Part shown: piece by piece, positions 19,636 through 19,962 of the stretch | Layout of the letters: each line of letters begins with the position of its first letter | Numbering within the stretch: the stretch's first letter is position 1 | Source of the DNA: Candidatus Peribacterales bacterium | Lineage (GTDB): Bacteria; Patescibacteriota; Gracilibacteria; Peribacterales; Peribacteraceae | Reading direction: 5' to 3' | DNA length: 26,479 nucleotides | Assembly: GCA_020059985.1 (NCBI GenBank) | Contig: JAGVCI010000103.1 | Span: forward strand, 1-26,479 | Translations under genes and position numbers: made by a program | Notes under the pieces: generated by a model | The model's input: the letters and a program-made list of their open reading frames with translations, nothing else | What the model was told of the DNA's origin: nothing | The model's database searches: none

Positions 19636-19709
19636 CGAGTGGTCAGCATACCGTAAAGAACGCTCTGGGAGTTAGGGTTTGATTGTGAATTATTGTACGA
19701 TGGGCGCGA

Positions 19710-19722
19710 GCCATGGTGGCGG
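19710..19722 (+). repeat. Truncated copy 1 of the tRNA-Leu 5' end (GCCATGGTGGCGG)
   Basis: 13/13 identical to 19876-19888. Confidence 0.75.
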
Positions 19723-19742
19723 TCCTTCGACCGGGCTCAGGA
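19723..19742. repeat. REP-like imperfect palindrome TCCTTCGACCGGGCTCAGGA
   Basis: Terminal TCCT/AGGA inverted ends; begins exactly where tRNA copy 1 stops. Confidence 0.6.
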
Positions 19743-19786
19743 CAGCTCTCGTGATCATTCATTCAGGTCTTTCTGTCATTGCTCAA

Positions 19787-19839
19787 GCCATGGTGGCGGA
19801 ATTGGTATACCTGCCTGCCGGCAGGCAGGCGCGCACGAC
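19787..19839 (+). pseudogene. Truncated copy 2 of the tRNA-Leu 5' half, interrupted in the D arm by a 20-bp perfect palindrome
   Basis: GCCATGGTGGCGGAATTGGTATA (22/23 match) + CCTGCCTGCCGGCAGGCAGG + CGCGCACGAC (10/10 match); the anticodon and 3' half are missing. Confidence 0.8.
19810..19829. repeat. Perfect 20-bp palindrome CCTGCCTGCCGGCAGGCAGG (REP-like)
   Basis: The sequence equals its own reverse complement. Confidence 0.85.
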
Positions 19840-19875
19840 GAAAACTCGTTAGAATAGAATTACGATCTTTCTTAT

Positions 19876-19962
19876 GCCATGGTGGCGGAACTGGTATACG
19901 CGCACGACTCAAAATCGTGTTCCCTCACGGGATTGTGGGTTCAAGTCCCACCCATGGCACCA
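19876..19962 (+). tRNA. tRNA-Leu(CAA), CCA encoded
   Basis: 87 nt: acceptor GCCATGG/CCATGGC, anticodon arm CACGA-CTCAAAA-TCGTG, long variable arm, T loop GTTCAAGTC and 3' ACCA. Confidence 0.95.

Follow-up and report, generated by a model that had tools for sequence, protein, structure and literature searches.

How the front end of an essential tRNA gene comes to stand three times in a row, twice broken and once intact, is the question raised by positions 19685-19962 of the window, by which we mean the whole stretch of 26,479 nucleotides analysed here (contig JAGVCI010000103.1 of a Candidatus Peribacterales bacterium). The gene is that of tRNA-Leu(CAA), and the source genome of the window, called G000 below, is a metagenome-assembled genome (MAG) of 962 kb in 125 contigs that is 88.6% complete; relatives carry similar handles (G for genomes, C for contigs and L for loci). 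Our comparison of this locus with its counterparts in related genomes points to small cassettes built around a GIY-YIG nuclease gene. On balance, and with moderate confidence, we read the array as two stacked scars of such cassettes, the nuclease gene having been lost at both, together with companion hairpin repeats. The parts of the array are listed below, the partial copies of the tRNA being called stubs, the palindrome PAL and the second insert hp1.

19696..19701, plus strand: TACGAT, a -10-like box, 8 nt 5' of stub 1 and probably the original tRNA promoter
19710..19722, plus strand: stub 1, tRNA-Leu(CAA) nt 1-13 (5' strand of the acceptor and 5' strand of the D-stem), identical to 19876-19888
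19723..19742, plus strand: hp1, TCCTTCGACCGGGCTCAGGA, 20 nt, member of a dispersed family of 18-20-nt motifs (CCTTCGNC..GCTCAGG), at the start of the would-be D-loop
19743..19786, plus strand: spacer 1, a putative remnant that resembles a cassette right end (weak alignment), with a TCTTTCT block
19787..19809, plus strand: first part of stub 2, tRNA nt 1-23, 22/23 match
19810..19829, plus strand: PAL, CCTGCCTGCCGGCAGGCAGG, a 20-nt perfect palindrome at D-loop position 23/24, clean insertion
19830..19849, plus strand: second part of stub 2, tRNA nt 24-33 exact, then 10 nt with 7/10 matches; break at the start of the anticodon loop
19850..19875, plus strand: spacer 2, with TACGAT at 19861-19866 and a TCTTTCT block directly after it at 19867-19873; proximal promoter of the live gene
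19876..19962, plus strand: intact tRNA-Leu(CAA), CCA encoded (ARAGORN; Rfam RF00005, 58.7 bits)

The sequence GCCATGGTGGCGG, which makes up the first 13 nt of tRNA-Leu(CAA), is found from 19710, from 19787 and from 19876 onwards, successive copies being 77 and 89 nt apart, as the initial annotation of this DNA had reported. Since just one more exact copy exists in the whole 962-kb genome, on a different contig, the presence of three within 180 nt is not a matter of chance. The same annotation took the third copy for the intact tRNA, which ARAGORN and Rfam both call and which is the sole Leu-CAA gene found in the assembly, and it rightly placed a TACGAT 8-9 nt before copies 1 and 3, the second of these boxes lying 9 nt 5' of copy 3. 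The region of the first TACGAT, TTATTGTACGAT, is similar to TTATTGTATGAT, which in G004 precedes the outer tRNA stub of the orthologous locus next to murL. In the first part of stub 2, the sole mismatch (AATTGG against AACTGG in the tRNA) is due to a T at 19802, which is the base present in the tRNA of the closest relative, G328. The perfect palindrome said to lie cleanly inside the D arm of this copy is indeed found there, and its insertion left no target duplication. Modules of the stub 1 type, that is, the 13-mer followed by the motif, occur in five other places. As regards transcription, 18 of the 33 tRNA genes of G000 have a TAnnnT box 5-12 nt upstream of them, as compared with 4.5% of random positions, and judging from this enrichment such boxes very likely serve as -10 boxes for tRNA transcripts that have almost no leader; neither a full sigma-70 promoter nor a terminator for the tRNA was found between 19560 and 20060.

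The state of tRNA loci in the relatives is what ties the array to nuclease cassettes. In G338, a stub of nt 1-35 with PAL at 23/24 is followed by 18 nt, an 87-aa GIY-YIG open reading frame (ORF), 35 nt and tRNA-Leu(CAA), the whole forming a tandem unit. An ORF stands between two PAL-bearing stubs upstream of tRNA-Leu(CAG) in G020 (contig C15), while in G006 tRNA-Leu(CAA), 21 nt and the ORF are followed by nt 15-87 in a second copy that contains a PAL variant; in G021, a tRNA-Ile precedes the ORF, which is followed by a PAL-bearing copy of tRNA-Ile. These small tRNA-associated ORFs of the relatives encode the GIY-YIG catalytic domain alone (PF01541) in 79-87 aa, and PAL flanks or adjoins the nuclease gene in all four Leu-linked cassettes (G020, G338, G006 and G010). 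The stubs of the window break at 13/14 and at ~33, the cassettes at 14/15 (G006), 35/36 (G338) and ~33 (G020), and a stub of G337 is also broken at a place similar to the break of stub 2. The TCTTTCT block is present in the two spacers of the window, in the 35 nt after the stop of the G338 nuclease gene and in the equivalent spacers of G022, G003 and G145, and in all four of these relatives a -10-like box stands before it. Linkage to tRNA genes was assessed on 26 small GIY-YIG genes from 12 genomes, picked by score and not by context: 11 of them lie downstream of a tRNA of the same strand, at a distance of 22-356 nt, and no gene shows another tRNA arrangement, where chance would give less than 1% per gene, a figure that overstates independence given that the genomes are related. 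The initial annotation had proposed successive hits on the locus by small palindromic elements. That the hits were successive is largely supported, but their agent was probably not the palindromes; the gene is more likely to have been broken and rebuilt by a GIY-YIG cassette, and such a cassette still stands at the same tRNA in G338, G020 and G006. At some loci (L076, G005:C22; L083, G026:C2; L089, G002:C27; L072, G008:C21) the gap between tRNA and GIY-YIG gene is filled by tandem units of 40-120 nt, and from their repeat structure the cassette borders themselves appear to amplify.

One may propose the following course of events. The array would be non-coding debris from a gene, that of tRNA-Leu(CAA), which was twice in succession hit by an insertion and rebuilt. 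A complete cassette would comprise, in this order, the stub (the old front end of the tRNA, broken within a loop or beside one), a short left end, a single-domain GIY-YIG gene of 79-87 aa, a right end of ~35-45 nt that includes a -10-like box and TCTTTCT, and the rebuilt intact tRNA. With time, the stubs would gather tiny hairpin repeats (PAL, hp1 and others) in the former tRNA loops. Applied to the window, this scheme would give stub 1 broken at 13/14 with hp1, stub 2 broken at ~33 with PAL at 23/24, and then the live gene, and both steps would formerly have contained a nuclease gene. The break could be made either by the nuclease itself or by a hairpin-specific nuclease of the Ssn type; Ssn proteins are single-domain GIY-YIG nucleases that cut single-stranded DNA (ssDNA) beside the hairpin repeats flanking their genes (Chenal et al. 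2025, PMC11893778). Repair would then copy the promoter-proximal 5' part, and short-patch conversion would hold the stubs identical to the 5' end of the live gene.

The staircase is not a private history of G000, since its layout is common to G337 and G236. In these two genomes, which belong to two other genera, a hairpin stub broken at 13/14, a PAL stub with its insert at 23/24 and the live gene follow each other at tRNA-Leu(CAA) as they do in the window. Such agreement argues against misassembly, a possibility raised by the initial annotation and contradicted by the same layout in independent assemblies of relatives. Across ~33 tRNA-Leu(CAA) loci of the family, 5' stubs are found at 8, at 3-4 an older tRNA is split into two halves by a whole intact one, and 3 show 3'-side remains only; about 19 are without any remains, that of the closest relative G328 included. 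As many of these loci share murL as divergent neighbour and are orthologous, they represent one site in different states. A MurL-based search for orthologous loci in GTDB returned distant loci of the Candidate Phyla Radiation (CPR) only, all without the tRNA.

The sequence of the stubs follows that of the genes beside them: the stub acceptor strand is that of the partner tRNA in 12 of 14 comparisons, which cover six acceptor types. The length of the module is constant at 58 nt plus the hairpin; modules with hp1 measure 77-80 nt, those with a 36-nt hairpin 94-95 nt, and the spacers have diverged between modules. Units share identical patches, of 29 nt in G000:C96 and of 47 nt in G236. As far as sequence identity can tell, these patches show that copying between the steps is ongoing, and copying of this kind could be what holds the stubs to the sequence of the live gene.

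Nested genes were seen as a further state of the locus. An intact tRNA-Leu lies inside an older tRNA-Leu of the same anticodon at L003 (G024:C3), L017 (G009:C76), L019 (G003:C46), L137 (G337:C140), L140 (G180:C8), L152 (G336:C25), L153 (G004:C11) and L159 (G328:C57). The inner gene is flanked by a 5-nt inverted repeat, GTGCC..GGCAC, and stands mostly at the centre of PAL in the outer D-loop, while pairing persists between the two outer halves, in which extra hairpin inserts are found.

Fragment arrays also exist at other tRNA loci, a check that the initial annotation had suggested: 5' or 3' partial copies occur in G000 and in many relatives. The loci of G000 concerned lie on C118 (L098), C55 (L099), C11, C67 and C119. 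There, tRNA-Ser(CGA) has an 18-nt 5' stub with a hairpin 92 nt upstream, the Pro(GGG), Arg(TCG) and Asp(GTC) genes have 3' pieces 70-85 nt downstream with hairpin elements before them, and the 3' piece of the Asn gene lies 1.2 kb downstream. A second module of 13-mer and hp1 (L097, G000:C96:1-400, minus strand) stands before a Leu(GAG)-like gene and holds a perfect 29-nt repeat composed of 16 nt of upstream sequence and the 13-mer. This Leu(GAG)-like gene is missed by ARAGORN, and its 5' acceptor GCCCAGG is unpaired with its own 3' strand, and we are dealing either with a chimeric or dead gene or with an assembly chimera.

Both inserts behave as the dispersed elements they had been supposed to be, PAL and hp1 each being multi-copy. 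When one mismatch at most was allowed, PAL was found in 72 of 301 genomes sampled from the class, in many families and at 1-18 copies per ~1-Mb genome, while the reversed pattern, taken as control, gave 0 matches. Its distribution is patchy even inside one genus (for example, 13 copies against 0), and exact copies are present in 35 viral-contig stretches of IMG/VR. The placement of 20 copies was read in two relatives. Three of them interrupt tRNA copies. The first splits the T-loop of a 3' piece of tRNA-Ala that lies shortly downstream of the intact gene, the second the T-loop of a tRNA-Gly copy that precedes its intact counterpart, and the third the anticodon loop of a near-whole tRNA-Ile whose intact twin lies ~240 nt off; several more are inside the loop of hp1-type hairpins. 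Taken with the D-loop position 23/24 that PAL occupies, in several genera, in stubs of Leu genes with the anticodons CAA, CAG and TAG, these placements bear out the claim that the elements lodge in tRNA loops. Each PAL-bearing tRNA copy examined has an intact copy within ~300 nt, and because of this intact copy alongside we take the interrupted tRNAs for dead copies and not for intron-containing genes. A tRNA intron of the group I or archaeal type was rejected on the same ground, an intact gene standing beside each interrupted copy, and for want of any intron match in Rfam; at permissive thresholds, Rfam reports the tRNA only and no intron family. A miniature inverted-repeat transposable element was likewise rejected, as PAL has no flanking duplication at the tRNA site and the repeated tRNA pieces vary in length (13, 18, 23, 29 and 33-35 nt). 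No single target sequence for PAL was found among its copies, many of which can be oriented with CG after the element.

A few more copies of PAL are worth describing. The sole other copy of G000 (L100, G000:C48:701-720) lies in an intergenic leader, 25 nt upstream of the start of a minus-strand gene, and has GCGCG on one side, to be compared with the CGCGC that follows PAL in the tRNA stub. Some viral copies are flanked by direct repeats of 7-14 nt (L169, L163 and L179; IMG/VR). Three viral copies sit in tRNA loops, two of them in the variable loop of a tRNA-Met and one in a D-loop followed by a GIY-YIG-like ORF (L192).

Regarding hp1, its core (CCTTCGNC..GCTCAGG) has 11 copies in G000 (0.96 Mb) against 0 in shuffled sequences. 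The first copy of the tRNA front end had been described as ending exactly at a hairpin; its 13 nt do abut the 20-mer, but this 20-mer is a weak hairpin when taken alone, its DNA fold being no better than that of shuffles (z = -0.6). In G000 and relatives, hp1 is mostly found within longer hairpins, for instance with the stem GTGTCAT..ATGACAC, and the term conserved motif suits it better, its usual place being the loop of a stem made by the flanking sequence. At another locus of G000 (L086, G000:C57:4210-4700), a tRNA-Glu is followed by 132 nt of hairpin repeats and a 93-aa GIY-YIG gene, and hp1 lies ~280 nt upstream of the tRNA.

Several observations weigh against reading the array as two cassette scars. 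Positions 19685-19962 contain no GIY-YIG ORF or recognisable remnant of one, the nearest in G000 being on other contigs, and what homology the window spacers have with the end of the G338 cassette is short and weak (column identity, 61%). The modules are old, as their diverged spacers indicate, yet the stubs match the live tRNA, and either conversion or selection would be needed to reconcile the two. As for PAL, it lies within 1.5 kb at just 2 of the 26 GIY-YIG loci of the clade, and the idea that it is a constant companion of these genes had to be rejected; moreover, most of its copies on viral contigs are outside tRNA contexts. For both reasons, PAL may spread independently of the GIY-YIG cassettes.

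The array could then be understood without any GIY-YIG cassette at the locus, as a plain local duplication, by slippage or unequal exchange, of the promoter and the 5' part of the tRNA. The neutral stubs would still fold like tRNA arms in ssDNA and would later have been colonised by palindromes resembling repetitive extragenic palindromic (REP) sequences, moved by a REP-associated tyrosine transposase (RAYT). Perfect repeats that include the promoter, as in G236 (47 nt) and G000:C96 (29 nt), are what such a process would leave, and the clean insertion of PAL without target duplication is what single-strand insertion by an HUH enzyme predicts; PAL and hp1 are also found in the loops of other hairpins, away from tRNAs. 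Genes of the RAYT type are present as well (G000 has 1, G010 has 7 and G009 has 11), and an inverted hairpin repeat of its own borders each of them. Yet those inspected are never flanked by PAL or hp1, and the enzymes put forward in the initial annotation fare unequally in this respect: RAYT-like HUH genes do exist and small GIY-YIG genes are strongly linked to tRNAs, but the flanks of the RAYT genes do not connect them to either insert. Duplication alone also leaves unexplained why the stubs end at the same two loop positions as the breaks of the ORF-bearing cassettes, and why the spacers contain the cassette-like TCTTTCT, and we consider it rather unlikely. Another possibility is that the array has a function as a 5' leader. 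Transcription from the upstream TACGAT would yield a leader of ~165 nt that imitates the 5' end of the tRNA twice and contains stable hairpins, and this leader might affect the processing, stability or expression of tRNA-Leu or act as a decoy. About 19 of 33 relatives, G328 among them, are stub-free at this tRNA, and in an alignment of six modules the 9 predicted pairs show 0 compensatory changes; because most relatives do without stubs and no covariation was seen, we rate this role low and hold it to be unlikely. It would fit the constant length of the module, the conservation of hp1 and of the 13-mer far above that of the spacer, the fact that the stub follows the acceptor sequence of its tRNA (12 of 14), the position of the sole good -10 box of G022 and G050 upstream of the stub, and the keeping of the array in streamlined genomes of ~1 Mb. 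It fits less well with the variable, nested and decaying inserts of the stubs, with the lack of a match to any Rfam family and with the identical patches, which suggest copying over selection.

Two more conventional explanations can be dealt with more briefly. Genes for tRNAs are classic sites of integration, and G000 does possess downstream 3' fragments at Asn, Pro, Arg and Asp, from which one might think of a remnant of an integrase-type attachment site. The part repeated in the window is, however, the 5' end and not the 3' end, the steps are a mere 77 and 89 nt apart, and no recombinase gene lies on the contig, which confirms the absence of an integrase noted initially; the two Xer-like genes of G000 are both elsewhere, and an origin of this sort appears highly improbable. 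We give equally little credence to an assembly artefact in a repeat-rich region of the MAG. While contigs of this MAG often end at tRNA-Leu repeats, as C56 and C96 do, and none of the public sequencing runs searched contained the window (best share 0.04), the same three steps with the same insert positions are present in independent assemblies from two other genera, and single-step forms in several more.

Coming back to cassette scars, a broader proposal can be ventured, albeit tentatively, as we regard it as possible but doubtful. Tiny GIY-YIG nucleases and letter-perfect hairpins such as PAL may together represent a new class of selfish element, which would target the loops of tRNA genes, probably as folded ssDNA, would survive only by rebuilding or bringing a working copy of the gene, and could carry a whole tRNA. 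The last point is suggested because relatives have an intact tRNA-Leu, bordered by GTGCC..GGCAC, nested in PAL within an older D-loop. Staircases would then be the fossil record of repeated invasions, and ongoing copying would keep the stubs matched. It should be kept in mind that few sequences of a cell are as conserved and essential as its tRNA genes, and that nearly all of these genes are single-copy in these ~1-Mb genomes. If true, the proposal would describe a new way for selfish DNA to inhabit an essential gene without an integrase, and it would account for odd tRNA pseudogenes and contig breaks in CPR assemblies as well as for a 20-nt palindrome that stays letter-perfect across families and viral contigs. 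The recently described Ssn proteins, ssDNA nucleases that are specific for hairpins and attractive as tools, would gain a biological home as well. In the staircases and nested tRNAs, nature provides series of intermediates from which the mechanism might be worked out.

How do these loci compare with known systems? Tiny palindromes that insert cleanly into structured or coding sequence, and are sometimes nested, include the Rickettsia palindromic elements and the small dispersed repeats of cyanobacteria. Those repeats belong to other sequence families and clades, and they are not known to be tied to tRNA stubs or small nuclease genes. The Ssn system with its NTS/SRM (PMC11893778) resembles the cassettes in that its GIY-YIG proteins are very small and single-domain. 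Its hairpin repeats of 20-50 nt flank the gene and are also dispersed in many copies, which gives an order of repeat, gene and repeat like that of an insertion sequence; the cassettes may share this layout, with PAL at the gene in the four Leu-linked ones and within 1.5 kb at 2 of the 26 loci overall. Unlike the Ssn paper, in which tRNA is unmentioned (PMC11893778), the genes described here stand directly behind tRNAs and are bracketed by dead tRNA pieces. The window differs from Ssn/SRM in having hairpins and stubs without a nuclease gene, and Ssn belongs to the cd10448 clade; the ORFs of the relatives match PF01541 alone and may fall into that clade or into another.

The closest parallel in terms of tRNA neighbourhood is SegB, a free-standing GIY-YIG homing endonuclease in the tRNA cluster of phages T4 and T6, whose cuts drive tandem tRNA-segB amplification via short homology at tRNA 5' ends (PMC13096335). 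SegB and the cassettes both place a GIY-YIG gene beside tRNA genes, the cassettes doing so in relatives and not in the window. SegB is, however, a larger phage protein with a DNA-binding part, whereas the proteins here are cellular, 79-110 aa long and reduced to the catalytic domain; its units hold whole tRNA genes without hairpin-filled stubs, unlike the stubs described here. REP/REPIN sequences with their RAYT (HUH Y1) (PMC3116915) share with our inserts the form of short, dispersed, non-coding palindromes, and RAYT-like genes occur in these genomes. Unlike REP sequences, PAL and hp1 are without a GTAG head and do not flank any RAYT gene inspected (G000, G010 and G009); PAL is letter-perfect across families and viral contigs, while REPs are usually species-specific and are not known in tRNA loops. 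Integrative elements leave partial, non-functional tRNA copies beside an intact gene as well (PMC9897764), although those fragments are 3'-end repeats lying kilobases apart with an integrase gene between them, whereas here they are 5'-end copies, 77-89 nt apart, with no recombinase. Neither tRNA fragments nor palindromes are mentioned in the paper that describes complete Peribacteria genomes, and in the literature on CPR, Peribacteria, GIY-YIG, RAYT, tRNA fragments and small dispersed repeats we found no description of this arrangement. Cassettes of GIY-YIG genes dwelling in tRNA genes have thus apparently not been described in publications.

Some minor features of the source genome complete the description. 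The RAYT-like HUH-Y1 gene of G000 (G000:C56:2029-2478), recognised by HCH and YIHQNPVKAGL motifs, has the inverted hairpin repeat GGGAGCGGGTTTCCTACCCGCGG at its flanks; this repeat has ~12 copies in G000, and the gene lies 1.9 kb from tRNA-Leu(CAG). Many ORFs of G000 are without a Pfam match, which together with the size of the genome and the affinity of its MurL-like protein places the organism in the Patescibacteria/CPR. The MurL-like protein encoded next to the array has its best relative in a Candidatus Peribacteria MAG, with 53% identity.

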